The notes beneath the pieces are model-generated. The model had not been told where the DNA came from. It did not search any database and was given only the letters and a program-made list of their open reading frames with translations. A program made the translations under genes and the position numbers. Shown in pieces: positions 2,930-53,018 of a DNA stretch of 64,000 nucleotides (positions are counted from its first letter, which is position 1; every line of letters starts with the position of its first letter). This DNA is from Cyanidioschyzon merolae (taxonomy: Eukaryota). Location: the NCBI GenBank assembly GCA_000091205.1, contig AP006493.2, one strand, 5' to 3'.

Positions 2930-5900
2930 GTCGCGCGCCTGACGCCGCCGCCAGCGCGATACGCCGATTGTTTTTCATTACGAGATGTTTACTTAGGCCA
3001 GCGTTCTCCGATTGAGCGCATTGTTCTTTTCTTACTTTTTTGTGTTATTTTTTCAGTGCGCGATAAGGCATCTATAAAACCCCCTCCCTCCAAGTTACAT
3101 ACCCTTTACTGATTCCAGGATATTCTGGTCGTTTCATACGTCCTATCGAGTGTGCCTAGTACCTGCAGTTCCGTATTCGCCTTTGCACCGTACATGCTAG
3201 AGCAGATAGTTCATCGAGCTAGAACGGCGTTGCAGTGCCACACAGAGGACGTCGGCTCGAGGTGTGCTTCACCCGGCGTAGAATCGGGTCTCATTGTCTG
3301 TCTGTGCTCGGACAGTCTGCGGATGCAGGCTTGCCTTCGCTGCCCGACACGCTGGAGAAACTTGGTTGTTAGGATAAATCCTGGGAGCCGCCTCTCTCCT
3401 TCGTGATCTTGCATGGAATGCGTTGTTGTCGGTCGGCAATGCGGGTTTGTGCTTGACACCCACCATAGTGGGTAGGCGCAGAGAGCGCACTGAGCCCGTG
3501 TGCGCATCCGATTCGTTGGACCTTACGCCTAGAAGGTAGCATGTGAGTTTGTTCGCCACTAATGAGCGCTGAGGCTCGGTTAGCGGACCACCAGTTGCCA
3601 GTGCTACACTCAGAGTGAGTGTCCGGCCTTGGACTATCACGGTGATGCCAAGCTGCTGCTGTCCTTCAAGGAGCTCGCTGCGCGGCTGTTTCCAGCGCGG
3701 GCACTGTAAGCCTAAATATGTCAGCGTCTCGGGGGTCTCGTCTCCACAGCAGGGACAGTGTGATTCCCAGTGCGATTCCAGTGTTCCTATACGGCTTAGA
3801 GCCGGTGATGGTCGCCAGAAGCCACCAACGCGGATTTTCGCGAGCCACTGGGTACCTCGAGCAAGTCCCGGGAACTCCAGCGCCTCCCACCAGTACTTGC
3901 GTGTGTATGCTAGGTTGTAGTTCCGATATAGAGTCAAGCTGGCGTTACGGGCCCGACTGGTTCCGTGTCTACGTTCCCATATTGTTGTTTGGACGGTTCG
4001 CTTGAGGCGGCGGGAGCCTTGTACATTCCTGGGGAACGACTGGAGCGTGTTGTCTCCTAAGAGGCGCTTCAGCCAAATCTGCGTCGATTTCATCCAAGTG
4101 TTCTTGCGGCGCGTTGGGGTCTGCATGAAACTCCGACTCAAAGAGGTGCGCATGGTGGGCCCTTTTGGCCCACACACGTGCCTGGCAGCCTGCTGCTATC
4201 GCCTCTATCGAGGGTATTTCGAGTTCAAGTCCGAGTGCCAGGCAGGTTGGTCGCTCTGCTTTGCATTGAGCATCCAACAACAACGAGTCGCATTGCCCTG
4301 TTGGCGGCTGTCTGCAGACGTGAGGCGTTTGTGTGCTTCATGCCGCACCATTCAGCACCACAGGTCGCAGGCTGGATGATACACATCCTTGGTGCGCTGG
4401 TACGGATTGCTAAGCGGATAGAGGGGTCGGATAGGACTGGGCGTGCGATCGCTGTACGTCTGTGCATCTTGGCGATCATCTCGTCGATGTGTGCCTTTTC
4501 GTCGAGCGTCGGCGTGCGACAGACCCTCCAGGTAGCGATATTTTTCCACGATCGGAACTTCCTGATTCTGCAACCGCGACGAGCGATTGCGAATGCTCTG
4601 CGAGTCTCCATGGATGACCGCGACGCCGCACTTCGATGCTGCAATGCTCATCTCCCAGCAATCGGCCCAGGCGCTGACTTGTTCCATGCTAGCCGCAAGC
4701 GTTTCCGGGGCGGGTGCCAACAGCACGACATCGTCCGCAACTAGACGGCCTGCGAGGCGGTTTCTATGTGAGGGCTCCTCATCGGGCATCTCCACAGTTT
4801 ATCCGCGGCACCTCAAGCCCGTATTGTCTGCAGTTGTTCAGCAGATCGTTGATGAAGATGTTGAAAAGGAGCGAGGATGCGCGGTCGCCCTGTCGCAGTC
4901 CACGGCGCATTCTTATCGAAGGGGTTCTTGAGCCGTCGCCCAGTCGGATGCGCATCCATGAGTCTGCATAGAGCGCACGGAAGAACGCCAAGCACTTTTC
5001 GGAGACTCCGCCGCGTTCCATCTTGAGAAATGGAGCCTCGTGCGGGACCGTATCAAAGGCCTTTTGAAAGTCGATGAAGCATACGTAAGTTGGTTGTTGG
5101 CCGCTAATGGAGCGACGTTGCACCACTTCAGTTAGGGTCAGGGCATGGCTCATGCACTCCTCGCGGCTCCGGAATCCATCCTGTTCTGGGGCGAAGAACT
5201 TGCGTTCCTCGAGGCCCCTCTGGATCCAGTTCGTGAGGCTGGCGCAAAGTAGCTTCATGATTGACGGGATGAGGCGCATAGTCCGGTAGTTGCTCACGTC
5301 TGTGTCTGTGGGTTTGGGAGTCCTTTTTTAGGATCGGTACGACCTCGACAGTCCTCGGTACATCCGGGATGTACGCCTCTTCGAACATGCGTTGGATGAG
5401 CTCCAGAAGGCGTTTGCTTAAGATTGTGTCAGGTTCATCTGGTATCGATATTGTCCCTGTTGTCCCGTCTTTTGGGGTCGCCAGTCTCATCCACTCCGCA
5501 GGGATACCGTCGATGCCAGGTGTTTTGCGGTTGCTTGAGCATAGCAGGGTCCGAACAGATTCAGGCCAGAAGATTGGGTCGTTCCATTCCGGTACCGGTT
5601 CGAGGCGCCGTAGTTCCGCAGCATATTGGTGCCGATAGATTCGGTTTTGGCAGTGCCCAGTTGCGTCTTCATGCAGCTCTGGCCCGTGGTCCGTCCAGGC
5701 CTCATTCACTGAGGCACGCTCCGTCCTCAGCGCTTCCTCATAAACGATTGGTGTGAGTCCCAGGCACTTTTTTGGTGGGTCAAGTCTCGATCGAATATAG
5801 CGCCATGTCTCATCTTCGTTGGTGCTCTCTAGCATAGATTTCGCCAGGGAGGCGATTCTGCGGTTTCGATCCTCTCGTTTGTCTTCTCTGGAAAGTTTCT

Positions 5901-6650
5901 TCTTTCTTTTGATAGCTTCTTCATGTTGCGCCTGTGGCGCCGGTAGCGCTGCCTTCGCTTCCATGTCTCCGGCGTTTGCGCGTATGGCGGTGCGGTTGAC
6001 GATCTTGTTAAGTCGGTGGCATTCATCAATTCGAGTTTTGGTACGTCGTTTCAGGTACTGAGGTTTGCAACTGTTGTGTTCTGGTGCAAGCAGTCCCAGC
6101 TCTCCGGCAATCTTCTGATTCCCATCTACAAAATTGCTTCCCAATGGGTTTAAAGATTTGTATGCACGGCTTTTCGGATCTACAGCGCTGTGAGTAGGTG
6201 ACTGGGTTTGGTGGCAGCTTTCTTGAGTTCCCGCTGGGGGTGCCCTTTCGGGGGATGACTTGTGATGGGCTCGTTTGGGAGTTCTTCTTTCTATTCTTCT
6301 GTTATTTTTTCTTCTTCTTCTTCGGGCTCTTTCCTGAGCTACTTTCTCTGGTTACTCTTCTGGCATGTGGATCATGATGCCATTGTGTCTTTTCTTCTGT
6401 ATCCCGTTGGGCCTTTTTCGCTAATATAGATTCCTCGACTTGTATCAGTTTTTCATTACTGTACTGGTAATTCGATATCTCGTCGTCTAGTATCGAGGCT
6501 ATCCCACAAATATTCCATGATGCGAAACCTATCGAGTCGTAGCGCGTAAGGGAATAAGAATAGCGCTGCGGTACTCCAGAGATACGTTGTCGATTTAGAT
6601 GCACCCTCCACGGGGTGTGTGAACGCACATGCCACCAGCGCCTCCTGCAT
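2930..6650 (-). mobile_element. degenerate non-LTR (LINE-like) retrotransposon, full extent approximate
   Basis: Minus-strand ORF pieces carry reverse-transcriptase motifs (FIDFQKAFDTVPH, RGLRQGDxxSxLLFNIFINDL and a VADD variant of the F/YADD motif). The C-terminal piece has a Cys-rich knuckle (CPCCGDETPETLTYLGLQCPRW). A possible endonuclease start (SWNICGIAS) lies near 6.5 kb. The roughly 100-nt 3' tail (2935-3045) is repeated at 63.48-63.60 kb. Confidence 0.65.
3269..6144 (-). pseudogene. LINE ORF2 (endonuclease/reverse transcriptase) remnants broken into at least four frames (3269..4177, 4352..4795, 4779..5297, 5128..6144)
   Basis: The reverse-transcriptase motifs are split across overlapping ORFs in different frames, so frameshifts are present. 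Confidence 0.65.
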
Positions 6651-7499
6651 TCCAGTCGTTCACTGAGTGTCTGCTGCAGCGCTAGCGTAGAATCAGATGT
6701 ACATTAGTCAAGGTCGATTCAAATGCGACCTTTATCTTGCCGGACGTGTGAAGCTACCCGCAACCACAGGGGATACTCTATGAACCACCCTTTCAGCGGC
6801 TTCGTATCCGCTCCCCAAATACACAGGCGGGCAAGTCGCTTACTCCACTTTCGACAGCGAACATGCTGCCAGCCGTCTTCAAAAGTAGCCGCCGAAATTG
6901 TTTCCAAAGTTGAGGTAGCTACCCAAGGTAGGAGGTAAAACTGAGCCCGAGTTCGAGGATGGATCCAGGATTTGCGCCCGAACCTGCAGCGTTGTTTCGG
7001 GAGTGGCGGATGACTACCCAGAACTCTCGTCATCATTCTCTGCTGCTATTGCCGCCGCCATCCGTTCGATGCGGTCAAGGTCCCTGGAGAGGGCTTCCTT
7101 CCTCGTCGCCCGAGCACCCCGCGTTAACCCACTTTCAGAGTTTCTCCGCAAAAACCGGACTTCTTAGGCGCGCATACTGTATGGGGCTTTTAAGATAGTT
7201 GTTCTTTAATAAATAATTTGTTACTAGTTTGCATCACGCTCGGTGAGCGCACCTCGGAGATCCGGCAGGCATGAGACGCTACGCGTATGTCGCCGTTGAA
7301 GGGGAACGCGATCCTGATCTCTAGTATGTAGATCTAATGTAAAAGTTGTATTTTCGTTAACTTCATAGCCAAGTACAGTTTTTCAGTTCGTTTTTGTTTC
7401 AAACTTCATACAAGTCTAGTCAAGTGTTTTTTTGCAGTATATAACAGAAGCGTTCACAGAGCGTTGTTTTCCAAAAAAACTAAAAAAGGAAAGTTATGA

Positions 7500-9570
7500 A
7501 AACGCAAGTCGACGATCCTGGAGGCCCAGGGTCGCCGGCTGCCAGAAAAAAACAAAAAACAGTACCGAGTCCAGAAGAAAAGAAAGAGAAGAAGAACCGA
7601 AACGGGGACCCAACGTCGAAGGCGACAAGAAAGACGACTTTACGACGAGATGGTGGTGAAAACCTTTCTTCTTGGACATATCAAGGATCCGTACAGGGAA
7701 AAGTTGCGAGACGTTATCGAAATACGTGTCGACTCGTACTCCAAGAGTATTGTCAAGGCGTCGTCAGGACTGATGCATTTGGCGAGGGAGATGTATCGCG
7801 ACGTGACGGACATGGAAACGGTCGAGATTCCAGGCGAGTTCTTCGACAAGGCCTTTATTCGTCACGTGATGCATGGCACAGAGGAAGCGCGGAAGGAAAA
7901 ATGAGCTAGTGCATGCCCACCACGAAAACTTCGCGGAATTCTGCTTCGAGAGTAATCGATACAGCGGTGACGGAAATATTTACACATACGGGGTAATGAA
8001 GTACATTACGAACCTGAAGAACCATTTGACAGAGAACCTCGAACGTTTTATGATACGCGCCGTAGTTGCACTCTACCCGGGCCTCTCTCGCAACGGAAAA
8101 TGGGCGATTATCAATGGCATCAAGAACGATCGATAGTATGAAGATGAGGTCGAATTCGTCGACAAGAAGGCGTCACGCAGGAGCACGAATGAGGATTCCG
8201 TCATCCGCGCGGTTATACAAGAGCACCGTGCGGTACTGGGGTTGGCAAATCCAACAGACAAGATATCAGAGTTGAAAAAAGATAAGGAAAAATACTATCG
8301 CCTCGTCCTGCGCTATTTCGTGTTTCTGGATCGAGAGCTCGAACGCAAGGCGGAAATGAAGCTGAATGTAGAGACAAATGAAGAGTGGGAGAGACGGAAG
8401 GCTTTCCTAATGAGTAAGTGCCTCAGCGTCGTTCCGTTATGCAATATCCAGTCACATTTCGTGATTATCGACTCCACAGTCCTTCATGGCATAATGAGGG
8501 ACATCAGTCCGGTGTTCAATGTTAGCAGGGAGGACTTCACCGGCGAAAATCGGGAGACGTACTAGATGAGTATCTTCGATTTCAAACGTATCAAAGTCAG
8601 CAGGCAAAAGTTGTTCACTAGGATGATCGAAACCGATGGAGTAGCCATGTGTGTACACGATCGGCGGTTGAAGAAAGATCGTCCAGTTCCGCCCTCGGCT
8701 GCGCCCATCACGAAGGATGAAGAAAAGGAACAGGCGGATCCTGTGACGCAGGAGGTGCAGGACAACGACTTTGTTGTTTGCGCGGACCCTGGGAATACGA
8801 ATATCATAACCATTGCAGCACCGAAGCGTGCAGAAGATGGTACTGACGGCAACTTGCGTCAGAAAGACATGCGTCTTTTGAGGTTCTCGAGAGCGAGATA
8901 CTATCGAGAATCCGGTATAATGAATGCGAGGAAGAGAATTGCTGCATGGAATTCAGGAATGAAGGATCACCTGGAAGCTTTGAGCGAGGTGACGAGCCGA
9001 GGAGCGGACTTTGAAGCTTTTCGGAAATTCATGGAAGTTCGCATTGCGCATTGGGATGCGCTATGGGAGGAGTATACCAAGCCCCGGTGGGCTCGTTTGC
9101 GAATGAATCTATACGGTGGGAAGCAGCGGGCGTTCGCGAATTTTTTCAATGAGTTGAGTGCCCTCAAGGAGGATGAAAGTCAGAGGCCCGTAGTAGCATA
9201 CGGAGCAGGGCGCTGGAAGACCCAAAAAGGGACTACTCCAGCTCCAAAGACGAGGGTGTACAAGGAGTGTGCACGGCGTTTTGTTACATTACCTGTAGAT
9301 GAGTTCCGAACGTCCCATACACACCACGAGCTGGATTGTACACTTCAGAGGGTCGAAATGGAAAAGTGCCAGAGGAGCACTGAGGAAATACCAAAGTACG
9401 GTGCGCTGACGGAGGAGCAAATGTAAAGGAGGGCGAAAGTTCGTGGACTACTCGCACTGGTGAGTACAACTCCCAACGGCACGAAACGTATGGAGTTTGT
9501 GCATCGTGACTTACATGCCGCTATCAATATCAGGAAATGTGCGGTGCTGGAGAAAAGACCTCCAGAGTAG
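7500..9570 (+). pseudogene. TnpB/Fanzor-like RuvC nuclease reading frame (about 690 codons). It is interrupted by one apparent +1 shift near 7900 and by three in-frame stops (TAG at 8134, TAG at 8563, TAA at 9424), so it is either pseudogenised or intron-containing
   Basis: RuvC-I is present as [16 protein letters not shown] (a GxDxG-type motif). A candidate rearranged RuvC-II glutamate sits in LPVDEFRTSHTHHELDC. RuvC-III is present as RMEFVHRDLHAAINIRKCAVL. The N-terminus is very basic and NLS-like (KKRKRRR…). The ORF pieces 7650..7904, 7873..8136, 8242..8565, 8566..9426 and 9427..9570 lie in one frame apart from the 7900 shift. Confidence 0.6.
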
Positions 9571-9676
9571 ACACGAGAGAGTTTTGTGGGACACCCTCTC
9601 AAAGTGGAACTATATGAGAAGAAGTTGAAACCAGTAGTAGGTGGCCGGTCCAAAACGACGGGGAGGCCTCTGCACG
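9480..9676 (+). ncRNA. candidate omega-RNA scaffold of Fanzor copy 1. It overlaps the RuvC-III coding end and extends to the transposon right end; the putative guide would be 9677 onward (tcaattggagacttcttg…)
   Basis: At nucleotide level this block is conserved with the rc of 18185-18385 and with 55700-55896, and similarity ends at the same position in all three. Conserved segments include CTGAAACTGA, GGCGGCCAGTCAAAA and GGGAGGCCTCTGCNCG. Confidence 0.35.
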
Positions 9677-9925
9677 TCAATTGGAGACTTCTTGTCCAGG
9701 GCGCGGTTGCTGCCACTACTGGACACCGCTGGCGTCGTTCGACTTTCGATCGGTGCGCAATCGCGGCAGCGTCTCGACAGTCGCGATGCATCGCGTGCTT
9801 TCGATTCGAGGATGCCCGGTACCTGACCGGAGAGCACCATAGCAAAACGTTTCGACTGTTTATTCACCTTCCAGGCGTCTGGGTTTGTTCGTGTTTGCGA
9901 TAAATCTAGTGCGAAAAAAATAAAC

Positions 9926-12737: not shown

Positions 12738-15700
12738 AAGCGTCTGGTTGAAAGCAGCGCCTCTGTCGTGCGGCGTCTGGCCGGTCGGTACGAACTTGTT
12801 TCGTTACATGCCACCGGCCTCTGAAAGAAACGCTAATGCATGTCGTGAATGCTCCGAGCCCGACTATATTTGTTGCGTTTCGCATGAGGTTGCATGATTC
12901 TTCCCTGCGGGCCGGCTTCGGTGGCATCATTTCCTTTTGCGGAACGCAGACCTGCGGTGATCTGAACAGCAATCTCGGGACGAACTGTACCATTGCTTGC
13001 ATTCATTTTTTCTCACAGGTATTGGACGACTGGAGTATATCGTGTAGATAGGAGAAAGGTTGCAGAATGGATTTATGCTTGAAGCGCTAGCCCGCGAACA
13101 ACGGTCTACTTGACCACTTCAGGTTTTCTACAGTCCACAGTTAGATGGACTGTCATTCTCGAGGTCGGTATTCTGAACGTCGCGCTCCCGAAACACAACA
13201 TGACAAATGCTGTCTGCACCTACGACTGGCTCCTCGCTGATCACTTCCATGCCACATGTCCTCTAAGAAATACTGCCGAATAAGCTAAAGGATGTGTTGG
13301 GCGCGTGCCACTCTTACGAACAGTGATGAAGAGACGCGGATGGACAACTGAACAAGCATGCTTGTATGGCAGACTGTCGCGCATTGCGCAACACACTACC
13401 GAATCGAAGTGAAGCACGAAAGCGTATGATAGTTGGGGCAAAAGTTCGTCTCATTGTATGAGACTTGATTCGGTCAACATGCTCGCCCTGTATATATGTG
13501 CCCAAAGGGGCAAACCGCTGTTCTTACAGAAGAAACATGCGAGGATGACCACAACATCAGCGCTAGCGGCGATGCTGTCGATTAATCGCCTACTTACCGG
13601 CAAACGCACAGGATCGTTCAACATTTCATCCGTCACCGCAGCATACCTTGGTTTCTTTTTCGTGCTTTCCTGAATACTGCTCGTAGGAAACGCCGCTGTC
13701 CATCATGGAACACAAGTCAAGTCGTACGCGACTGAGATTATTGACGTTGTGCTACTCGTCGTGACAGTCTATTTTCGCTCGTTCAATCGCGTCGAAGTTG
13801 TATATTTGGTCGTCAAAAACCATTTTTTACCCTGTAAGTTCAAGAATAGAGTCGTTTCCATCCCCACGGCACCAAATTTCTGTGCCATATCCTCCACTGA
13901 CGTCTCGCTGCCTACCGTAACCAGCTCCGAACTGCGGTCGTGCTTCTCTGCTAGTGCGCTGGACAGATCAAAGACGCTCGCTTCGGTCTATGGGCGTGCT
14001 CGGGACGGAGCAGTTGAATACAAGGTCCCTGATGAGCAGTAGATACATTCATCGAGAATGCGAGCTTCCGAGCCACCGTCCACCCCATGCTTCTGAATCT
14101 CAAGAAAAAATTGTCTGTAGCGTGTAGCGACCAAACTTATGCCACGCTACCAAGAAAACGAGAATGGAAAGATTCCAACAGACAACGAAGTGCAATATGC
14201 TTTCGAAAAGGGACGGCAACGTACATGAAGAAAAGCCTGTTGGGGCGGAAGGATTTGCCGCAAGCAGTTGCCACGAAATTCGTTCTATCACACATCTGCC
14301 AGGAGAATCTACGAAAAATTGAGGCACGTGACACCATGAAGAATCGCCAGGCTGCTCACTCGTACAAAGCTCGTCTGGCTTTTCTAGCTCTAACGCACCA
14401 CGTAAAGCAAGTATACATAGGAGTTCTGGGCGCAAGGCTACTACTTAGCCGCATTTCTCCGGAATTATTTGAGAAAACGTTCATGCGATGATACAGCAGA
14501 TGCATGGAACAGAGGATGCAAGACAACCTGATCGTAAGATACGAAATGTGCACACCTAAGCTTCCCAGCATACCGTGACACGTTGCCAGGCAGCGTCGGC
14601 GATCGCTGCGATGCCTGCCATCCGAGTCCAGGACTCTATTCCGTGTAAAGAGCAGAGACGTGAGCGTCGAGCAGCATATCGTATGAGAAATATATCATGC
14701 TGCCGTCGAATGCCGTTTCGCTGATAGCCGGAGCGATCGGTGGTGGAAACGTCTTTCGAACGGAATCCATCATTGAATGGTAGAAGTTCTGGGAACTTTC
14801 CTAATGGGTTCGCGAGCAAGTCCTCAAGAGACGACGTTGGGCATTTTTCCTCGTCAGTCCAGCGGTCTGCGTCGCTTCGCCCACAACTTGCGACCGAAAG
14901 ACCGAAAAATGAAGCATGCGAGGTTTGAGCATGCTACCTGTAAGGGAACGAGAAGATTCCAGACTCGTGCGTATGCAGTGGATAATAGTATCGGTGCAAT
15001 GACCAACCCGTGTTCGAAGGCGTCGCGAATCATCTTGATGACGATGACGCAGCAAAGTCCAGCGGTACAGTGTCGAACGAGCCACTCCCTAGAGACTTCG
15101 GAGATTCCTGAAATCCGCATATACATTCGTAAGCTCTTGTTGCTGTGCTTCGCATACCCATGCCGCACAGCTATACAAGTTCGGAGACTATCGAAAAGCA
15201 GGAACATATCGGGTAATTGAGCGTTCCACTCTAATCCGACACACTTGCAGCGCACCTAGCTACAGGAACGCTTTTCCACCACAACAGCGGCGATGTTTGT
15301 ACGAAACCTGCACTCGTCTGCGATCCAGGAGCGACACCGAAATCGTGCGCTCGGAGCAAGGCCTCGGAGGAGAATCATCCCTGCCAGAGATCCGTGACGC
15401 TGCTCCCTACCGAACAAGACGTAGCAGTTCGCGTCATGTCCGGAATGCTGTAGCAAGTATCGCGATGATCGCTTCCTACGGTTTGTTGCAGTGCATTCAG
15501 GTTCAAGGAGGCTCAGCACGCATCCTCAAGGTTCACTTCAAGCGTGCATGTTCCATGTCATCGTATGTGAGGCAACGCTCAGTACGCAGCCGAAAGCTCA
15601 AGAACAGCCATCCAAGCAGGCATTGCTCAACGGGCGACAACAGACTCCAATGCATTTCACGGGGTTCCGTTCTTGGACGCTTCGGTGCAGGGATATGGAC

Positions 15701-17820: not shown

Positions 17821-17950
17821 ATGGCTCACCACCCAGCGCTACAGCTTCTGGTGCACTGCAACAGCTTCTGGTGCACTGCAACAGCTTCTGGTGCACTGCA
17901 ACAGCTTCTGGTGCACTTCAACAGCTTCTGGTGCACTTCAACAGCTTCTG
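17821..17950. repeat. 20-bp minisatellite (CAGCTTCTGGTGCACTGCAA)x6, with the last units diverged
   Basis: Direct reading. It lies in the 5' flank of the seryl-tRNA synthetase gene and about 235 bp beyond the right end of Fanzor copy 2. Confidence 0.9.
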
Positions 17951-18184
17951 GTGCGAAGCGCAAGCACGAAGGGCGCTTGTACTGAGCGTTCGCCGGCGAT
18001 GATCCGGGGCGCCGGCACGCCGCATGAAGAGGTGCTCGGGTGGATCGCGGGATACTGCACCTATGGCTGGAGTGGGGATCTGACGCCCGTGAAAGAAATT
18101 GGACCTGCATAACCACCCAGACGTTATAGATGAGGACAACGATACATGTTTGATGGCCATGGAGGGTGAATATGTATGTATTTA

Positions 18185-18385
18185 CGCGCAGAGGCCTCGC
18201 AGCCTTTTTTGACTGGCCGCCTTCGATCAGTTTCAGCTTCTCGTTGTATCCGATGAGCCTGAGAGGCTGCCCAACCAAGTCACATCGCGTCAGCTCTTGG
18301 GGTATCGTTTTCAGCACCGCACATAGCCTGATATTGAGTACAGCGTTAAAATCCCGGTTCACGAACATCTCGCGTTTATAGCCTC
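18185..18385 (-). ncRNA. candidate omega-RNA scaffold of copy 2; the putative guide is the flank below 18185 (minus-strand reading: taaatacatacatattcaccctcc…)
   Basis: Its reverse complement aligns with 9480-9676 and 55700-55896, and the conservation boundary falls at the same place. Confidence 0.3.
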
Positions 18386-19297
18386 TGTTAGAACGCGCCA
18401 TTGCAAAGAAAGCTGGAACTCGTGCCCTCATTGCCATTTGGTGCTCAGTCAGCTCTCTGTCATTTTCTATCGCACAAGCGATCCACTGGCGTGTCTCTAT
18501 GCCGGCCGTCTGAAGTGCATATGCCCGCTCGTCCCAGAGATTTTTTAATCTTTGAAAGCGGCCGCACTTGTACACACCCATAGGTGAGGAACTTCTCGGA
18601 AAGACAAGGATTTACGCAGGATAGACGAAAGATGCTTCGGTGCTACCGTGGTGGAAGCTTTTGCGATTCGCCCATCGGAGCTATTATGATATGTGTCATG
18701 ATAGAAAACGCTCCTTCTATAGATATGGACCTCGGAGCCTAAGGAGGAATGAAAAGCAGCTCTGTCCCCGATAGAATCAGCAAAAGCTCGAAAGAGAATG
18801 TTGAAAGGCCACGGTGTCCAATAGATGCACGTCGCAAGAAGTCAGAGAACAATCTTCCATGATTCGACGAGTTGGGAGCTAATGTATACGCCCTCTCTAC
18901 GAGAGAAACTGAGGCCGACAAATGCATCTACCAAAGTTCGAACAGATGATGATGTCGGTGCTCTCTTCGAGTTCGTTGTACGTACAAAGAACTCCGTCTC
19001 TGCGAATACCCGTATACGCTTCGACCGTCTCATCCGAGGAAAGTATGATCGACTGAAAAAAAACAACCGACGTTCCTGTGCTTCATGCAGATCGCAACGT
19101 TCCAGGAACACTAGAGTTGCGATTTCGATGGACCATGACCGGGTGTGAACCAGGACTCTTTTTATGCGACTGTATCCGAGTGCTTTCAGGGCTGCACGAA
19201 CAAGATCTTGAGAATCAGAAATGCCACTGCTGGCTATGATCATCGCTTTCGCTTTTCTTACGATGATCAACGGGTCGTTTTCTACCATTGACCGCAA
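18300..19297 (-). pseudogene. truncated and decayed Fanzor nuclease ORF of copy 2 (C-terminal RuvC-III portion plus an upstream segment shared with copy 3)
   Basis: ORF 18842..19297 (minus) has …VRAALKALGYSRIKRVLVHTRSWSIEIATLVFL…, matching …VRVALETLGHSYVKRVLVHAQSSSTEIGTLVFL… in copy 3. No RuvC-I motif is present. The listed ORF 17826..18581 reads through the element end into the minisatellite and is spurious beyond about 18185. Confidence 0.45.
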
Positions 19298-20283
19298 GCA
19301 CCTTCAAGAATATCAGAGTTTGTCCCAGAGAGCATATCCTTCCTTCTTTCAGTGTCCCTGTATCGTCAGAATACAATGGTATGCCTGACATGAAAGATGA
19401 ATGCAGTCCTGCGCTGCACTGCTCAGTAAAGAATATATATGTATCATACAGGCAATTCGACTAGGATCTAAACCGATACATCGCATTTTTTGTTTTCGAT
19501 CTCCTGCGACACACCAAATCGGGGATGAAACACTTTTGACTTGAAAGACGCTACGAGGCCTTGAGTTTTAAACTAGCGTGTTCTGCATACACATCAAAGA
19601 GCATTTCCCGATTTCTCATTTCTTGACGAAGGTTATCGCGCCATGCATTCGTAGTATTCGACCCGCACTTGAAGTACCTACCGGTCAGGTTTGAAGTCCA
19701 ACGGATGCGACATACTGCGTCCCGACTTTGCTCTAGGCAAGCCTGAATGGGACCGGACTCGCTTCAGCGGCTCCCTTAAACAGCCTCTCGCATTCCAAAG
19801 GCCGGACTTGTTCCTTCGCTGAGGCGCTGGAACACATCTCCCGTACCGTGCAAACTTTAAAATGGAAAAAATGCTACGCTCCACGTCTTGCGACCCGAAA
19901 CTGCGTCGTCTCCGCAGTGCGTTGGGCAGGCGTTGCGCCCAGAGAGATGCACTGACTTTCGTTAAACTCCAGCCGCATCTCGAAAATACAAGAATCGATA
20001 CTCGCTGTGTCTGTCACTTGGTGGCAGTTTATGCGCCCAAGTAACGAGGAACCGACAACGATGCGGTTCACTGAGGTCTAACCTGCAAGCACCAACGCAC
20101 AGATCGAAAGCCGCATGTGCGGCAGTGCAAGGCCGGAGGCGCTTCAACCCTGCCCCAGCTGATACTTTTTGACGCCTTCATCACAGCGCATGAAACGCTG
20201 AGCTTGCCTTTATCGCACCTGGACGCTAAGAATGTCCTATTCCTCGAACAACTTCAAACAGCGCAGCGCTGGACCAGGAACGC

Positions 20284-22853: not shown

Positions 22854-25438
22854 TATAATTATACAACTATATCCTATTTGTTTCCGTTCGTGTTCGCACA
22901 GGCACTCAGTGCCCGGCACGCACCGCGAGCGACTGGAGCACTGTCGCGCACAGCTCTGATGCTGGCAAAGATAGCTCGCGATACGCCGCATTATTTCTAC
23001 AAAGCAGTCATTCTGTGGACACTACGACAATACACCGCCTGTATCGTTATCGGTATCCTGAACATCGTGCGCCCGCACCAAAACACGTTCAACAATCTCT
23101 ACGCAACTGCCTACTCGCCAAGCCATTCCAGCTTATGCCTTCTCGAAGGAATGCCGCGCAACAGGCGCCAGCATCTGAGGTTCGCGTACCGTTGCATCGC
23201 ACGACGACAACGAGACATTGAGGGTCAGCGCAGAAGGCAGGTTTCTGTGCGAGACCGTCGCGCTGCGCACATGACGCCGTCAATGGCGTCCCTCAAGGAG
23301 CATACATATCCCAGAAGCGACAGGAGTTCACCTCGCTCGATTCCAGTCCACGACGGGAGCACTGCTTGGCCTGTATGCAGGCAACCAAAACGTGGCAATC
23401 CGCTGTTCGCAAGGAAGCGACATGCGCGTACGACAAAAAGAACAGCACCAACAACAACAGCGGCAGCAGCAGCAGCAGCCCAGGAGCCGATGCTGGCGAG
23501 CGGTCGCCTACAAACCGCCACACAGACGGCGTCGTTCCTCACCTCATCCTGCGTTGAAACATTTCGAGGCTTCTCCATCGCGCTTGCTGATGCCCTGTCC
23601 TTGGACAGCGCCGCCTAGCACAGCACGGGAGAAGCACCGGCGTACGCATCTGGGATTCGTGTTCAGCTGCTCTTTGTAGCAGTTTGTTTTCCGCGGCCTC
23701 ATCCAGCGGCATGCGGCCTGTCTCTGCGTCGCCAACAACCGTTTCTACGCCCACGGACACGTTTCGAAAACACGACTCGCTCGCGTCCCCGGCACCGAGA
23801 CAAGCCGGACGCCGTGAGCGATAGCGTAGCACCGTCCCCGAGAGACTCTCGCCTCCTTGATGGACGTCGCGTCCGAATGGTCGCTGAACCGTGATGCCTG
23901 GCTTCCCGGCATCTCGCGCTACTCCGTTTCCGTAAATAGCGCTGGGCAGCGCATACCAGACTGCCTCCGGGAACGTGAGCGCCCCCCGCTCCCTCAACAG
24001 TCTAGTGGATATGGTCCATGGTTACGAGACCAGGACCCATGAGGGTACCCGCTGAGACACTCTTTGTCGCGTGTGGCCTTCCTGGTGCGCGATGCCCGGT
24101 CTATCTACGCAGCAACCAGGACACATTCGTACTGCTCCGCAGCGGGCATCGGCCGAGCTCGTCCAAGCTCTTTCGCCTACGCGCTCGGAGCCCAAAGACG
24201 TTTACAGCGACCACGGACACTGACCGAATATCACTTTGGATGTGCTCTGTGAGACCCAGGCCTGCGTCTCGAAACAGGACTCGATTTACGCCCATAGAGA
24301 TAGATGAAGAGCAAGTATTCAGGGCGGGCGTGGATCCCGAGTTCGAGTGCGTCACGACTGCCGCCGTGCCTCCAGCCCAGCGGGGCAGAACCGGCGATCA
24401 GCACCGCGAGCAGGTGTCGCTGCTCAGCCTGCTCCACGACTCGGTACCAGCGGGCGTCGTGCACCACACACACACCAGGAGGCGTACCAGCAGGTGCAGT
24501 GACTACCTCAGGGGCTATCTCGGCAATCAAAGCATCCTATCGAGCAGCGGCGGATGCTTCGTGCAGTGCACTCAGAGCGCCTATACGAGCGTCCGAATGC
24601 AGCACGCGGACGCTTTTCGACACAGGTACATGACACCGTGCTGCTGTCGCCAATGGCATCGATTGTGCGGAGCCAAGGAGCGTACATCCACACCGCCTAG
24701 TTCGGTGCGTCGGAAACGGGAATCATCGACGAGGCGCGCGGTATGCCTGAAACCTCTGGTACGGGGTGTGCTTTTGGAGCACACGGGCTGCACTCGTGCT
24801 CCTTCGATGCGAGCGTGCGACAGGCACAAGAATCGATTCCGTACAGATCCCGTCGACGAATGCACGACAACATACAAGTATCACGAACTGGGGTTCAGCC
24901 TAATCCAGTTCGAGAAGAAAAAGAGCATGAAACAGAGATCAATGCACGGGATGGTGTACGGGACGCCGAACGAACGTCAGATGGCGACAGCGTCAAAGTT
25001 CGGTGACCTCGTAGAGCCTGAAACAGAGACCAATGCACCAGGTGGTGTACGGGACGCCGAACGAACGTCAGATGGCGACAGCGTCAAAGTTCGGTGACCT
25101 CGTTTGGTGCGAATGTGCCAGCACCTAGGCGCCCAGGCTCTTTCCATACTACGACTTGAGCCGCTCGATCAACACGCGGAAGCGAGTCTTGGTTTGAGTC
25201 GAGCGAGCTTTCGACGCAGTCGTTCAGTACTCAGTATCGGTGCGCTGCTGAAACGCTGATGACGCTCGATGGAAAACTCAGTGGTCAGCAGAGAGGGAGT
25301 TGGATTCCAGACTGGAGCAAGGCACTGGTATGGTGCGGTTGGGAAATCCCGCAATGCGAGAGCGGCTTGGGTATGCTCTGAAGACGATGTTCTTTGCCAA
25401 CAAGCGAGCGATAATGATGCTCCGTTATTCGATGTTCG
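22854..25438. repeat. large direct repeat DR1, copy A (about 2.59 kb, non-coding as far as I can tell)
   Basis: About 98-99% identical to 29305..31887. It contains a (CAA/CAG)n tract near 23440 and a 91-bp tandem duplication at 24930..25104. The listed ORFs inside it are low-complexity. Confidence 0.85.
24930..25104. repeat. tandem duplication of about 91 bp inside DR1 (also present in copy B at about 31380-31560)
   Basis: The unit aaacagaga(t/c)caatgcac…gatggcgacagcgtcaaagttcggtgacctcgt occurs twice head-to-tail. Confidence 0.7.
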
Positions 25439-26053
25439 TTCGCATCAGTACACCATGATTCGCGAGACAGACTCGCACCACCAGCGCATCCAGTCCGCCC
25501 AGCACCTGACCATGGGCAGCAAGTTACGTCATGTGGACTCACATTCACAAGAAAAATGAGGATGCTGTCATGTCAACCGCGGGCGATCGCGTTGCCAGTG
25601 AACTTGGGCTAAACTCTCCCATTATGAAGATTGCGGTTCGAAGCAAGCGTTTCGGGGATGGGATACCGGCGTGATGCCACGCCTAGGCGCGATACGGTTG
25701 CGATGTGACGAACCGATGCTCGCATACACAGCAACGGCACCAGTCAAAGGCAATACCTTTTCGACAGCCTCCGTCCGATCGCTCGTCGCACAGAGAACCT
25801 AGACGCTCTGATGTACGCTAAAACGAATGCGCATATCTACAGCAATGCATGGTGTACGCTCCCAAAGCCTGTTGCAGCTCGGCAGGTATAGCCTGCCTGA
25901 CATGTATGTAGCGGAATCGATACTCCACGAGCTTGTCCACATGTCATGCTTGCCCGGACAGCTGGACGAGCTGAACAGGCGTGGAAATGAGCGCTTTATC
26001 CATGAACCTGCATCACTACCGTTCCAACTTCCGCATTAGATGATGCGCATGGA

Positions 26054-29304: not shown

Positions 29305-31887
29305 TATAATTATACAACTATATCCTATTTGTTTCCGTTCGTGTTCGCACAGGCACTCAATGCCCGGCACGCACCGCGAACGACTGGAGCACTGTCGCGC
29401 ACAGCTCTGATGCTGGCAAAGATAGCTCGCGATACGCCGCATTATTTCTACAAAGCAGTCATTCTATGGTCACTACGACAATACACCGCCTGTATCGTTA
29501 TCGGTATCCTGAACATCGTGCGCCCGCACCAAAACACGTTCAACAATCTCTACGCAACTGCCTACTCGCCAAGCCATTCCAGCTTATGCCTTCTCGAAGG
29601 AATGCCGCGCAACAGGCGCCAGCATCTGAGGTTCGCGTACCGTTGCATCGCACGACGACAACGAGACATTGAGGGTCAGCGCAGAAGGCAGGTTTCTGTG
29701 CGAGACCGTCGCGCTGCGCACATGACGCCGTCAATGGCGTCCCTCAAGGAGCATACATATCCCAGAAGCGACAGGAGTTCACCTCGCTCGATTCCAGTCC
29801 ACGACGGGAGCACTGCTTGGCCTGTATGCAGGCAACCAAAACGTGGCAATCCGCTATTCGCAAGGAAGCGACATGCGCGTACGACAAAAAGAACAGCACC
29901 AACAACAACAGCGGCAGCAGCAGCAGCAGCCCAGGAGCCGATGCTGGCGAGCGGTCGCCTGCAAACCGCCACACAGACGGCGTCGTTCCTCACCTCATCC
30001 TGCGTTGAAACATTTCGAGGCTTCTCCATCGCGCTTGCTGATGCCCTGTCCTTGGACAGCGCCGCCTAGCATAGCACGGGAGAAGCACCGGCGTAGGCAT
30101 CTGGGATTCGTGTTCAGCTGCTCTTTGTAGCAGTTTGTTTTCCGCGGCCTCATCCAGCCGCATGCGGCCTGTCTCTGCGTCGCCAACAACCGTTTCTACG
30201 CCCACGGACACGTTTCGAAAACACGACTCGCTCGCGTCCCCGGCACCGAGACAAGCCGGACGCCGTGAGCCAGAGCGTAGCACCGTCCCCGAGAGACTCT
30301 CGCCTCCTTGATGGACGTCGCGTCCGAATGGTCGCTGAACCGTGATGCCTGGCTTCCCGGCATCTCGCGCTACTCCGTTTCCGTGAATAGCGCTGGGCAG
30401 CGCATACCAGACTGCCTCCGGGAACGTGAGCGCCCCCCGCTCCCTCAACAGTCTAGTGGATATGGTCCATGGTTACGAGACCAGGACCCATGAGGGTACC
30501 CGCTGAGACACTCTTTCTCGCGTGTGGCCTTCCTGGTGCGCGATGCCCGGTCTCTGTACGCAGCAACCAGGACACATTCGTACTGCTCCGCAGCGGGCAT
30601 CGGCCGAGCTCGTCCAAGCTCTTTCGCCTACGCGCTCGGAGCCCAAAGACGTTTACAGCGACCACGGACACTGACCGAATATCACTTTGGATGCGCTTTG
30701 TGAGACACAGGCCTGCGTCTCGAACCAGGACTCGATTTACGCCCATAGAGATAGATGAAGAGCAAGTATTCAGGGCGGGCGTGGATCCCGAGTTCGAGTG
30801 CGTCACGACCGCCGCCGTGCCTCCAGCCCAGTAGGGCAGAGCCAGCGATCAGCACCGCGAGCAGGTGTCGCTGCTCAGCTTGCTCCACGACTCGGTACCA
30901 GCGGGCGTCGTGCACCACACACACCAGGAGGCGTACCAGCAGGTGCAGTGACTACCTCAGGGGCTATCTCGGCAATCAAAGCATCCTATCGAGCAGCGGC
31001 GGATGCTTCGTGCAGTGCACTCAGAGCGCCTATACGAGCGTCCGAATGCAGCACGCGGACGCTTTTCGACACAGGTACATGACACCGTGCTGCTGTCGCC
31101 AATGGCATCGATTGTGCGGAGCCAAGGAGCGTACATCCACACCGCCTAGTTCGGTGCGTCGGAAAAGGGAATCATCGACGAGGCGCGCGGTATGCCTGAA
31201 ACCTCTGGTACGGGGTGTGCTTTTGGAGCACACGGGCTGCACTCGTGCTCCTTCGATGCGAGCGTGCGACAGGCACAAGAATCGATTCCGTACAGATCCC
31301 GTCGACGAATGCACGACAACATACAAGTATCACGAACTGGGGTTCAGCCTAATCTAGTTCGAGAAGAAAAAGAGCATGAAACAGAGATCAATGCACGGGA
31401 TGGTGTACGGGACGCCGAACGAACGTCAGATGGCGACAGCGTCAAAGTTCGGTGACCTCGTAGAGCCTGAAACAGAGACCAATGCACCAGGTGGTGTACG
31501 GGACGCCAAACGAACGTCAGATGGCGACAGCGTGTAAGGTCGGTGACCTCGTTTGGTGCGAATGTGCCAGCACCTAGGCGCCCAGGCTCTTTCCATACTG
31601 CGACTTGAGCCGCTCGATCAACACTCGAAAGCGAGTCTTGGTTTGAGTCGAGCGAGCTTTCGACGCAGTCGTTCAGTACTCAGTATCGGTGCGCTGCTGA
31701 AACGCTGATGACGCTCGATGGAAAACTCAGTGGTCAGCAGAGAGGGAGTTGGATTCCAGACTGGAGCAAGGCACTGGTATGGTGCGGTTGGGAAATCCCG
31801 CAATGCGAGAGCGGCTTGGGTATGCTCTGAAGACGATGTTCTTTGCCAACAAGCGAACGATAATGATGCTCCTTTATTTGATGTTCG
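29305..31887. repeat. large direct repeat DR1, copy B
   Basis: Collinear with 22854..25438. It begins about 130 bp upstream of the RRP36-like start codon. Confidence 0.85.
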
Positions 31888-32320
31888 GTTGTCTAGTTCG
31901 ACACAGCTTTCGTGCTCGTTCGCTTCGGATGCCGGTCGCGCTAGAGTCTCGAGTGCATACCTGCGCATGTAAATTGGTTCTGCATAGCTTGACGTGCTCT
32001 CTGGGTGATGCAGTTTGCAGAAATCACAAGAGCGCCGACGCACGTCCTTTCAGAAAAACGACATTGCTCGCGAGTTTCCGGGCGATGCAGTGCTTCATCT
32101 TTGTAGGGCCAAGTTTTCGCACCGCTCCGAGAGTTTTCAGAGCATTCGCCTTCTACTGAGCACCACCGGTTACCTGCAAACTGCTCGAATGCACGGCTAG
32201 ATGCTCCTGGGATGGCCCATGGCACCCGGCTGCAGTACATCACACTGCGATAGAGGCAGACAGATTGGCTGCCAGTCGCAGCGGCACCGGCAAGCAGCGC
32301 GCTTTGCAGCGTGCTGCGAC

Positions 32321-41950: not shown

Positions 41951-43096
41951 CGTTTGGCAGCAGAGCATACGCAGGCACGAAGAATAGCGCAACACCATGC
42001 CCAGACCCGTGCTTTCCCAGCGCATTTCAGTGAAGGAAAGCGACCTCGTCTACGAGCAGAACAAAAGAATTTTCGCTGGACAAGCCACGAAAATTGCTTC
42101 GACAAAGAAGTATGGGATACCAATGGATCATTGTCGTTTGAAAATTTTTAGGCGACCAAATGATCGAAGCGCCTCTCGAGCTGATGCTGTCGGAATGCTC
42201 GCGTGTTTCTGTCGTACCCGCTGGGGTGTACCCCACTTGTACGCCAGCACGGATCGAATATTTCTCCCAAAGGACGTCTCATTGAGCGATATGAACACTT
42301 GTGCCGCATGCGGTAAGCGTTCGCATCTCAGGACGACATTGATCATGAGTTGTTCAACGCGCATCCTACCCGGATGGCGGCCAGCTTTTTTCCGTTCAAC
42401 CGATTCATTTCTGCACGATTCATCATATCGGTCCTGAATATTCTCATCCTGCTGGTTTTCTGATTGTATTTTTTAGAGAATGTATAGTAAGGAATGAATC
42501 GACGAGAAGCTGGCGTTTGGATAGCGTTTGATAACTTATGTGTAGTGTTCACTTCAATCAGGATAGGGGCTCAAACCGGGGCGGGTCATCCACCACCTGC
42601 TAGTCCTACAAAAACTGACTCGTGTTCATAAAGCCGCTTCTTGGCCAACTTGCTGTGACAACGTAACGTCCTTCCGCCAACCTTATCCAGTCTATAAGGT
42701 GCAAATCTTTTGTTGACTTCCAGTTACCAAAAGCAAGTATAAACAAGAACACCGTTTTCATCCAAGGATTCTACAATGCACCGTTCTGAGTATAACCCGA
42801 ACCAACGTATTCGCTCACAAATCCTCTACACGTACACCATTGTCAATAGAGGAGCACCACTGCACTGCGACAGGAAACAACATAGCCTCTTCCAGTCTGA
42901 AAAATCCCTCTATGCAACCAGAGAAGAGACAACGTTCATGACGTGGAATCCTGCACTTTTCCGCAACAGGGCGATCGCGATGTCAACGTCTCCCGGTTGG
43001 CCGAAACGTTCGCGGAGCAGACTCGCGGGCAACGTTCCACAGCGCGTTTAAGAAGACACCATTCCAGGGGCTCTTGTCCTGATTCACTCCTTCTTC

Positions 43097-49130: not shown

Positions 49131-49655
49131 CGTCCCCAGAAGCGCCCTCAGCCCTGTAAAGACAGTAGCTTGAGCGTACCGAACAGCTCAAAGTATTTGA
49201 TGCTGCACACGAGGAGTCAAGTTGCCGGTTAAGGTTCCGAACGAGTCGAGGGCCAAGAACGCCAGTTACGAGTTGCGCATCTTCGCGGTCCCGTTTACGC
49301 CCTGGTGCGGTGGAACGTGGACGTTCGTTTGGAGAATCCGCAAAAGGCCGCGAGAGTATCTCAAAGCCTCAGGGACGCTTCGGACGCGACTCTGCCAGGG
49401 AATGGGTGCAAGTATTGAAGAAATTTGGGATAGGTCGATATGATGCAGCCGCTGGTAGGGACCCCTGGCGTCGCAGAGCATGCGGCACGTGTGGCCCACG
49501 CTACACGTTGCCAGGGCAGCGCTCCAAGGCACAGAGACGATATCGGTATCACGAGACCCCGGTAGTGACGTGTGACAATAGCAGAGCGGGGAACGTGTTT
49601 TATGGTGTTGATTCGCTGGCCTAAACTCATTCATATCGAATGATGGAACATCATG

Positions 49656-51704: not shown

Positions 51705-53018
51705 CTACGTAACCAATCATGGCATCCTGCATCTTTCGGTGCCAAGCTTGTGATCGACTTGTGCTCTGACCTCTGAACGTAAATGGTTTTTGATGACAGC
51801 GTACATGACATTGACCGGATTAAACTAGGGAGCGTAGACCGACACGAAGAGCCGCTCAACATCAATCTCCGCAGCGCACTCCTTGACAGCATTTTAAATA
51901 CAGAAGGCGACGTTGTCGCGGAGCAGAAGAGACGAATACGGGAAGTGAAAGCCACGACGTGCTTCTACGACGGATGAGATATTGAGCGTTCGTATTCTAC
52001 TTGGGATTTTTAGGCTACAACACGAGTTGTGTACATGCACAGGTCTCCCATACCAACCAAATGAACGCTGATAGAATCAGATGAAACCCGTCCCTTTTGC
52101 AATTCGCGGTCGCGTTCAAGTGTGAAATCGAGAGTGTGTTGAACAGCGAACAGACTTCTCGCACAGAAGCGTACATATTTCTTTTCCCGTCTGTGTCGCT
52201 TCATAATCGTTCATATCAATGGTATGGAATATCACGTCCTGTTGCTTGTATGATGGCATTTCTTTGCGCACGCACAGAGTGGAAGGGATTGACGAGGGTA
52301 CCATGGGTACATAGCGTTTGACCTTTTCTGGTTTGGGTGCTCGACGTTCACAACAGGAACAAGCGCACGGATTGCTCAACCACCCGCTGACTATAGAATG
52401 AATGACGCGACGAGTACTGTCGTTTCTCGACAAGCTAGCATTGGCGTCACAGACAGCTCTACGCGACCATTTTCCAATCTAGAGGATATACTCCTTTTGT
52501 TGGATACTTGCCGAAAAACAGACAACGACAAAGAGAGCGTTGCTGTAATGATGTACGAGATTTCACTGCTCTGAGTATAACTGCATTTGAGTAGCATTCT
52601 GTAGGAAAAAGCGTTCAATAGTGCTCACCTACCAGCTTCAAACGGTGTGCGATGAGCGCCTAAATGCGCTCTCCCTCTTGAGCCTTCCTGGAGCAAAGGA
52701 CTCTCCACAGGACTGGAAATATACGCATGTACACGTCCAATAGAGATATTGAAATGCTTCCGAGCTATGAGCAGCCAGCATCTCTGAAGAACACAGGAAA
52801 AGTGCGCATACGTACGACCAAGATCGACGTGTCACTGTATTCGCGCAGTTGAGCTGCGACGTTCTCTCTAAATGGACAACAACGACGCGCATTTCGTTGT
52901 CCAAATATAAAGCGTTGACATTTTTGAACGTTTGCATTCCTTGAAGACTCACGAATTTGGTCCAGTCTTCCGCTGCACATGATGCGGCCCGAGTCGCCAT
53001 CCAGGGCGCTCTTGTCCC

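Follow-up and report, generated by a model that had tools for sequence, protein, structure and literature searches.

The 64,000-nucleotide stretch of Cyanidioschyzon merolae DNA analysed here (contig AP006493.2 of assembly GCA_000091205.1, hereafter the window) holds three related sequences that are the decayed 3' ends of genes for Fanzor1, a TnpB-like RuvC nuclease. They come from two related repeat families: the copy at 9480-9676 on the plus strand (W1) belongs to family A, and those at 18185-18385 on the minus strand (W2) and 55700-55896 on the plus strand (W3) to family B. An earlier inspection of the letters alone, the sequence-only reading, had placed them at the same coordinates and on the same strands. 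It had taken the position at which the similarity of all three copies stops (9676 in W1, 18185 in W2 and 55896 in W3; hereafter the boundary column) for the transposon right end, the ~150 nt before it for an omega-RNA scaffold, and the next 16-20 nt for guides drawn from host DNA. We find that the column marks the divergence of two family-specific 3' tails, which continue beyond it. Taken together, Fanzor1 3' ends, a boundary produced by the divergence of the A and B tails, and an inferred omega-RNA scaffold make up what is probably the best overall explanation of the data.

The three-way similarity itself is real and far above chance, as follows from three results. In a mutual alignment, W1, W2 and W3 show a mean column identity of 73%; the 17-mer ATGTGCGGTGCTGRARA common to them is present at these three sites and nowhere else in the window, where 0.04 occurrences would be expected; and W2 and W3 form a 229-nt inverted repeat (74%) in a repeat search of the window. 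The motifs quoted in the sequence-only reading were found in the sequence, and the similarity of W1 to W2 and W3 does end together, fading near the boundary column in each copy.

The sequence beyond this column was followed in 120 loci from a pattern scan of metagenome contigs, from which 66 distinct related 3' ends were extracted. These sort into two tail types. Type A is found in W1 and about 45 sequences, in which the stretch after ...GGGAGGCGTCTGCACG runs on as GTCAGTTGGAGACGTTTTGTCTAGGGCG..GCCACTACTGTACACCGCTGGCGTCGTTCGACTTTCGAACGGCGTT and then diverges; type B is found in W2, W3 and about 20 sequences, which run on past the block as GTGGGTAGATATATTTACCCTCCATGGTCGTGAAACATTTTTCGTTTCACTGATCATA. 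Two loci fetched via homologous proteins (L001 and L002) contain clearly related sequence past the W1 boundary. Across the 20-mer that follows the column in W1, TCAATTGGAGACTTCTTGTC, 32 non-redundant sister copies show a mean aligned identity of 75% (55-90%); over the next 80 nt past the boundary the mean identity is 71%, and at positions 86-130 it is 19%. W2 and W3 stay alignable for a further 45-47 nt at 68% identity (score 15 versus -4.8 +/- 3.3 in shuffles, with a maximum of 10), and BLAST aligns 55646-55939 to 18436-18138. The statement that the next 20 nt are unrelated is correct for W1 compared with W2 and W3, but it fails for W2 compared with W3, and the W1 flank is kept in sister copies. 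The 8-nt palindrome GAGGCCTC reported at the column fared similarly: it is present at the W1 and W2 loci, but in only 5 of the 66 sequences, all from these two loci, and 35 sequences carry the family consensus GAGGCGTC in its place.

The identification of the column with the transposon right end had been staked beforehand on conservation not continuing past it in additional copies. It does continue: family A keeps it for ~80 nt and family B for ~60 nt (~107 nt in W3, with its insertion), and the sequence becomes copy-specific only beyond the true ends, which the alignments place at approximately 9757 (W1), 18125 (W2) and 56003 (W3). The three-way similarity stops at the column because the A and B tails differ, not because the elements end. 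Judged by their conservation, each within its own family, the three 20-mers are element-internal, family-specific sequence and neither guides nor host DNA. The family-A elements end in ...GAACGGCGTT..., with a terminal hairpin that also occurs in the variant form ACGTTTTTC-TTTT-GAAAGGCGT; the family-B consensus extends to ...GTTTCACTGATCATA, with the end sequence ...CACTGATCATA. In W3 an insertion of ~50 nt (55940-55990) splits the family-B terminal hairpin and, if overlooked, would misplace the right end of this copy by ~50 nt.

The model of a right end at the column, preceded by a scaffold and followed by host-derived guides, is left scarcely credible by these results. It can point to the difficulty of aligning W1 to W2 and W3 at the column, and to the position of the column only 3-4 nt past a conserved hairpin. 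Its supposed guides, however, recur: to the identity of the W1 20-mer among its sister copies is added that of the W2 and W3 tails, which are common to 16 more family-B copies. Moreover, the in-frame stop codon common to most family-A copies lies 12 codons beyond the column, and one copy (L028) joins a B-type block to an A-type tail. Another chimera (L020) has an A-like block start and a B tail, and the two together suggest an exchange of 3' tails at or near the boundary column. The starts of the A and B tails keep a faint similarity. The sharp column is best read as a transition from strong constraint to sequence that evolves fast or can be exchanged. An intron starting at GTGAGT near 9463, or lying at the boundary itself (CGC/GTAAAT in W2), was considered and rejected, as the reading frame runs through without a break and neither site is conserved.

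By sequence comparison, the protein encoded upstream of the tails is a Fanzor1-type TnpB homologue, in agreement with the TnpB/Fanzor assignment of the sequence-only reading. A search with the conceptual W1 protein returned 67 homologues annotated PF26935/DUF8286, of which four are intact proteins of 676-702 aa with 40-41% identity and others have 30-39%. One homologue (P0061) scores above the threshold of PF07282 (Cas12f1-like TNB), with 29 versus 26.3 bits. A profile built from 14 homologues matches Parasitella parasitica Fanzor1 (PDB 9cf0) with E=5.1e-15, over the REC/RuvC-I region (chain residues 640-981) and the RuvC-II/III end, including the short C-terminal RP..L/F.R tail; the profile was needed, since a PDB search with the single sequence P0050 gave no match. 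In the alignment of the 14 proteins the RuvC residues D421, E592 and D659 (P0050 numbering) are invariant, as are R658, N661, A663 and N665 around the last of them. The conceptual translation of W1 keeps the motifs ..CADPGNTNI.., ..VDEFRTS.. and ..HRDLHAAINI.. (in its longer form ..HRDLHAAINIRKC..), and it bears out the claim that the block begins in the coding end of RuvC-III. In the zinc-finger region between RuvC-II and RuvC-III, intact relatives of a further family, D, read ..C..(n)..RGLLWC.., and family A reads ..HHELGC..EKC..RGLLALVS.., with one conserved Cys position lost.

None of the three copies has an intact open reading frame (ORF) for the nuclease. W1 has its main frame from ~7873 to 9699 and an upstream segment (7650-7904) in another frame, with one frameshift near 7900 and in-frame stops at 8134, 8563, 9424 and 9568, and W2 and W3 encode C-terminal residues only. 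The ORFs of the element in the window are too decayed for Pfam, which matched none of them. With none of the three copies able to make the nuclease, activity of any kind would require intact copies elsewhere. In a BLAST comparison of the window with the 120 fetched loci, many family-A copies begin at 7230-7238 and end at 9745-9755. Within the Fanzor ORF, a tandem-repeat segment at 8710-8785 (KDEEKE..QEVQDND units) varies in copy number among family-A copies, and the homologue P0001 has several extra units.

The block was described in the sequence-only reading as largely (~150 nt) non-coding. This holds for W1 as it stands, but in the family as a whole coding homology covers about two thirds of the block. 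In W1 the in-frame TAG at 9568 is followed by ~60 nt homologous to the coding C-terminus of intact relatives, and the entire block is in frame with the Fanzor ORF. The intact distant proteins all end ~22-25 residues past the RP..L.R motif, for example in ...RSTFVGQPLVHRVGKTLRR or ...FVGQPLVHRVGKTLRR, each followed directly by the stop. Their C-termini (...VGKTLRR, then the stop) align with ...YEKKLEA in family A (...RENFVGQPLKVELYEKKLEA), from which it follows that the segment from 9480 to ~9626 is homologous to coding sequence. Family A continues in frame for ~22 codons more, VVGGRSKKTGRRLHVSWRRFV, up to a usual stop position at 9697-9699 that is occupied by TAG in 15 and TAA in 4 of the 28 scored copies (19 in all), and by CAG in W1; several metagenome gene calls end exactly at this stop, after ...HVSWRRFV. 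Only the last ~50 nt of the block are, on this alignment, untranslated in more distant relatives, and with them begins a 3' domain rich in predicted stem-loops, which extends into the family-specific tails.

The codon that follows RPPE (9568-9570) is peculiar. In family A it reads TAG in 8 copies, TCG in 5, TGG in 3, CTG in 3 and TTG in 2 (24 scored, 9 not scorable), the family-B consensus has CTG, and the relatives have Leu. The T-N-G form is found with all four middle bases, which makes a single hypervariable second position beside conserved sequence.

These data bear on a simpler view, namely that the block was kept only as the Fanzor C-terminus in active ancestors of young copies, the helices being incidental and without RNA function. 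That the block is in frame throughout and homologous to the C-terminus of distant relatives and of Parasitella Fanzor1 agrees with it, as does the variability of family A by codon position in the RuvC-III segment (0.059/0.032/0.208), where the third-position excess indicates clear coding constraint. The differences between A and B in the shared hairpin are synonymous or conservative, and covariation is weak in family A and absent in family B. However, the third-position excess is confined to the RuvC-III part; over the last ~40 codons the profile of family A is nearly flat, and family B has no codon periodicity anywhere. The last ~65 nt are no part of the ancestral coding sequence, as every homologue of 30-40% identity terminates ~22 codons short of the stop used in family A. 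About one third of the scored family-A copies have TAG after RPPE and yet retain the downstream sequence, the consensus tails are unusually stable (z about -3.5), and non-coding tails past the stop are conserved up to a defined end. We consider coding constraint as the sole cause possible, though unlikely.

A conserved, foldable 3' region that could serve as an omega-RNA scaffold, as the sequence-only reading supposed, does exist. In both families a conserved non-coding tail at the 3' end of the ORF, ~60 nt long in A and ~60 nt in B, reaches a defined right end, albeit not the end proposed earlier. The block shared by A and B closes with a predicted two-tier hairpin, whose outer helix joins GTAGGTG with CCTCTGC (consensus CGTCTGC) and whose inner helix joins CCGGTC with GACGGG. 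The outer helix is paired in 91% of cells in family A and 83% in family B, versus 22-60% in slid registers, and the inner one in 86% and 78%, respectively; the hairpin is present in the minimum-free-energy fold of the family-B consensus. A long-range helix that straddles the boundary column is 87% paired and appears in the minimum-free-energy folds of both W1 and the family-A consensus. Together with two enclosed hairpins and a terminal hairpin of 10-12 bp it constitutes the family-A model, which is 82% paired versus 38-54% in slid registers; as the model was taken from a laxer RNAalifold run and curated by hand, this figure leans towards the consensus, and RNAalifold at default settings gave only one 5-bp hairpin. 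In one family-A hairpin (alignment columns 101-122) a base pair is split between CG and GC, with 12 copies each. A four-helix model of family B is 73% paired versus 36-43% slid. The consensus tails are unusually stable, with z=-3.56 (A) and z=-3.47 (B).

From these observations we give about even weight to the proposal that a Fanzor omega-RNA once had as its scaffold the last ~50 nt of the block and the family-specific tail behind them. The stretch between ~9630 and ~9757, and its family-B counterpart, would in active ancestors have been transcribed as this scaffold, which would overlap the end of the ORF and run to the end of the element as in characterised Fanzor1 systems, and the guides would have been read from DNA beyond the true ends.

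Several results weigh against this proposal. The variation in the shared hairpin is one-sided (U.G to C-G) and is also synonymous or conservative for the protein. The covariation check called for in the sequence-only reading gave a weak signal in family A and none in family B: in the former, 25 double-change cells were counted versus 17.2 +/- 2.9 in shuffles, a marginal excess that 5 of 500 shuffles reach and a level that can arise without structure, and in the latter no covariation beyond column composition was found, a score as high as the observed one being obtained in 444 of 500 shuffles. As they stand in the window, W1, W2 and W3 are no more stable when folded than their shuffled counterparts (z=-1.35, 0.08 and 0.68, respectively). 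A covariance model of the family-D 3' untranslated region (3'UTR) found no credible match in the tails of the three copies, the nearest hit being on the minus strand at 9568-9685 with E=4; the model, which does not recognise either tail type, thus lends no support to a homology of the structured domains. All family-B copies derive from one deletion event, so their kept 3' piece counts as a single observation and not as repeated evidence of selection. Finally, family A shows no consistent terminal inverted repeats and no target-site duplications. The shuffle control gave no support to compensatory pairs noticed by eye in hairpins of family B, and these were discarded. A search of the window with Rfam at gathering thresholds gave no matching family. 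A stable consensus together with unstable window copies fits the decay of a once-structured region, and the structure results for the A and B tails are, on these models, suggestive only.

Family B appears from its sequence to be a Tc1/mariner-type transposon whose Fanzor cargo was deleted down to the 3' end. In its elements, W2 and W3, which are ~1.45-1.57 kb long, a DDE_3 transposase pseudogene leads directly into the final 54-84 codons of Fanzor, and these into the B tail. The 5' 1.1 kb of W2 and W3 is frameshifted DDE_3 transposase: in W3, 54528-55416 matches by blastx residues 98-392 of the 401-residue DDE_3 protein of locus L124 (E=8e-40), and in W2 a weaker match (E=5e-6) covers 19300-19097, 18860-18795 and 18771-18697. 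The label PF13358 belongs to the L124 protein, and in intact relatives the transposase is located upstream of Fanzor; Pfam scans of the short window ORFs in W2 and W3 did not detect DDE_3. The blastx matches of the two copies to Fanzor are confined to its last 35-84 residues. B-type tails also follow full-length Fanzor genes, at three loci (L059, L077 and L021). That gutted copies keep the tail, as had been stated, is true inasmuch as a family without nuclease ORF retains the 3' piece; its members, however, are DDE_3 transposons and not gutted W1 copies. For the left end of family B, an IS605-like layout with a target-adjacent motif (TAM) found no support, as the TTTCAAC-like motif sits inside gradually decaying element sequence.

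The presence of a carrier transposon raises the question of whether the tails and hairpins are DNA-level signals, that is transposase-binding or terminal-repeat sequences of the carrier (DDE_3 for family B), instead of RNA. Family B has a DDE_3 transposase gene, and the reverse complement of its right end (TATGATCAGTGAAAC...) resembles by eye the family-D terminal repeat (TATACTCATGAAAATG...), which is sharply bounded. W3 has matching arms at 54434-54458 and 55978-56003 (21-25 nt; 21 nt at 76%). On the other hand, the dependence of the helices on G.U pairs makes them strand-specific. In a search of five family-B copies for inverted repeats, arms were found in W3 only, target-site duplications in the family were not consistent and no TA duplication was found. 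In family A, the similarity of the left end to the reverse complement of the right end is borderline (score 26 versus 17.6 +/- 2.8 in shuffles, with a maximum of 26). A purely DNA-level role seems to us unlikely, and by analogy with known Fanzors such signals would be compatible with an omega-RNA that overlaps the terminal repeat.

Family A differs in its surroundings: in the copies examined, the 2 kb upstream hold no transposase gene, and the left edge adjoins unrelated repeats. In the window this neighbour is a non-long-terminal-repeat (non-LTR) retrotransposon, a long interspersed nuclear element (LINE), which meets W1 head-to-head with the junction at 7231. In other family-A copies (L002, L004, L010, L063 and L103) this edge nucleotide borders on a 5'-truncated LINE (with 7231 joined to window position 4242) or on the 3' end of the LINE in opposite orientation; site-specific insertion, template switching or break repair are possible causes of the junction. 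At the other edge, (GGT/GTT)n-like simple repeats of variable length directly follow the terminal hairpin in about half of the family-A copies (window equivalent ~9757; loci L001, L002, L004, L034, L042, L063, L083, L098 and L117), which is unusual for a cut-and-paste end. One may ask whether the reverse transcriptase of the neighbouring LINE copied the family-A units, the 3' hairpin and simple-repeat tail being its recognition or priming signal. Such retroposition would draw on these simple-repeat runs, on an edge nucleotide whose neighbour varies among copies between the 5' end of a full LINE, a truncated LINE and the 3' end of a LINE, on the terminal repeats not found in family A, and on published associations of Fanzor1c with LINEs (PMC10530073). 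It is nevertheless improbable, given that no target-site duplications were found, that the LINE 3' end has no sequence in common with the family-A tail, and that related families clearly ride DDE_3 DNA transposons.

The family-D relatives (loci L123-L131, with intact proteins of 40% identity) have a complete layout: a DDE_3 gene, a Fanzor gene, a 3'UTR of 150-185 nt and a 30-nt terminal inverted repeat. The repeat ends in ...GAGTATA and is sharply bounded, with flanks that differ between copies and a clear TA duplication. Their 3'UTR folds into seven helices that are 92% paired, with strong covariation (16 double-change pairs versus 6.7 +/- 2.0 in shuffles, reached by 0 of 500). The covariance model of this RNA has two full-length matches in the window, with E of ~0.004 at the first position and ~0.002 at the second (Table 1). 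Both lie in a 6.45-kb tandem duplication, downstream of a third, degraded Fanzor ORF (24018-25097, ..VDECTTTYKYHELG..), and according to the model they are the better-supported candidate omega-RNA in the window. The window is altogether rich in the DDE_3 transposon superfamily. It has 55% G+C and long uninterrupted housekeeping ORFs, and Yellowstone hot-spring metagenome contigs (Ga0078972 and Ga0080006; loci L056, L078, L093 and L110) carry the W1, W2 and W3 loci at ~99% identity; these features point to a source that is probably a thermoacidophilic, intron-poor alga, for instance a member of the Cyanidiophyceae.

Table 1. Coordinates of the Fanzor1-related elements, their predicted RNA features and neighbouring transposon sequences in the window.
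Feature	Position	Strand	Basis or remark
W1, family-A Fanzor1 gene unit, pseudogene, ~2.5 kb	7231-9757	+	BLAST against 120 fetched loci
Fanzor1 ORF remnant in W1	7650-9699	+	Six-frame translation; blastx to P0001 and P0049-52
Block in W1	9480-9676	+	9480 to ~9626 homologous to coding sequence in all relatives
RuvC-III motif coding (RDLHAAINI)	9505-9531	+	Translation; aligns to Parasitella Fanzor1 C-terminal RuvC segment
Block in W1, last part	9627-9676	+	Family-specific in-frame extension and 5' part of stem-loop domain
Predicted long-range helix, CAGTAGT (9632-9638) with ACTACTG (9715-9721)	9631-9722	+	Straddles the boundary; encloses hairpins 9663-9693 and 9700-9714
Predicted two-tier hairpin ending the block shared by A and B	9637-9673	+	G(U/C)AGG(U/C)G-GCCGGUC-loop-GRCUGG-GAGG-CGUCUGC
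Family-A-specific 3' tail	9677-9757	+	Conserved in >30 sister copies; formerly read as flank and guide
Predicted terminal hairpin of family-A tail	9733-9755	+	CGTCGTTCGA-CTT-TCGATCGGTG
W2, family-B element	18125-19560	-	BLAST extents; left edge approximate; right end from family-B alignment; includes last ~84 Fanzor codons
Block in W2	18185-18385	-	In frame within ORF 17826-18581
Family-B 3' tail in W2	18125-18184	-	Aligns with W3 and 16 other family-B copies; formerly the second flank
W3, family-B element	54434-56003	+	BLAST extents; repeat search
DDE_3 (IS630/Tc1-mariner superfamily) transposase pseudogene in W3	54528-55416	+	Read across three frames
Fanzor 3' remnant in W3	55646-55896	+	Last ~54 codons, with stops and a 1-nt deletion; contains block 55700-55896
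Family-B tail in W3	55897-56003	+	Compared with family-B consensus ...CATTTTTCGTTTCACTGATCATA; formerly the third flank
Non-LTR retrotransposon (LINE), outside the Fanzor unit	2965-7230	-	RVT_1 PF00078, E=9e-16; adjoins W1 left edge
Family-D RNA model match	25273-25446	+	Full length
Family-D RNA model match	31722-31895	+	Full length
DDE_3 remnants in tandem duplication	22970-23747; 29421-30198
Further DDE_3 (Tc1/mariner-type) transposase remnants	13035-13826; 59760-60599; 41964-42400; 51780-52028	+; -; -; -
Terminal-repeat-like matches	52517-52579; 49622-49694	+; -	..TGATGTTCCAT.ATTC..TGAGTATA

Had the guide and target reading been true, the window would have supplied three ready-made pairs for a eukaryotic RNA-guided nuclease; these do not hold, because the flanks lie inside the elements. 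There remains a Fanzor1 family rich in members, with more than 60 copies from hot-spring metagenomes, two alternative 3' tails and nuclease-less derivatives that retain the 3' piece. It provides useful material for mapping the starts and ends of Fanzor1 omega-RNAs, the more so as the 3'UTR RNA of near relatives is strongly supported by covariation, and, if the host is thermoacidophilic, a place to look for heat-tolerant Fanzors. The chimeric copies L028 and L020 suggest a swapping of tail cassettes, and one may go further and picture the A and B tails as interchangeable omega-RNA and right-end cassettes joined after the conserved hairpin, with nuclease-less family B borrowing Fanzor in trans and an intact member acting as a heat-tolerant RNA-guided nuclease; this extension we regard as quite unlikely. 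To suspect an omega-RNA at the 3' end is reasonable in general terms, though short of proof. The elements are a further Fanzor1 family of usual architecture, and the understanding of how such systems work is unchanged by them.

Among solved structures, only that of Parasitella parasitica Fanzor1 is matched by the family profile; the similarity is remote and limited to the two stretches described above, and the N-terminal parts are unmatched. With the bacterial IS200/IS605 TnpB systems the elements would share the general layout, in which a scaffold overlaps the 3' end of the ORF up to the right end and the guide comes from flanking DNA, but they differ in having no Y1 TnpA, a eukaryotic host and DDE_3 carriers. 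Jiang et al. (2023) reported associations of Fanzor1 (Fanzor1c) with Mariner/Tc1 and LINE elements, and homologues in rhodophytes (PMC10530073). Like the Fanzor1 genes carried by Mariner/Tc1 (the class of Bao and Jurka; Fanzor1c), the family-D loci have DDE_3 upstream of Fanzor, W2 and W3 keep transposase and the Fanzor 3' end, and the LINE adjacency is as reported for Fanzor1c; family A, with no transposase gene found close upstream, departs from this class.

The closest functional parallels are SpuFz1 of Spizellomyces punctatus and GtFz1 of Guillardia theta (Saito et al. 2023), in which the omega-RNA lies between, or overlaps, the stop codon and the right inverted repeat, and the Fanzor1 guide consists of the 14-15 nt beyond that repeat (PMC10432273). 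Unlike these systems, family A ends without recognisable inverted repeats, covariation is weak, the RNA is a candidate and all three window copies are dead. Like them, the elements described here combine a TnpB-like RuvC nuclease in multi-copy eukaryotic transposons with a conserved region near the stop codon and right end. The GtFz1 omega-RNA overlaps 17 C-terminal codons (PMC10432273), and the family-A ORF similarly overlaps the foldable domain by ~22 codons. In S. punctatus, non-autonomous "ghost" elements without an ORF retain the ends and the omega-RNA region (PMC10432273), much as family B keeps its 3' piece without the nuclease.

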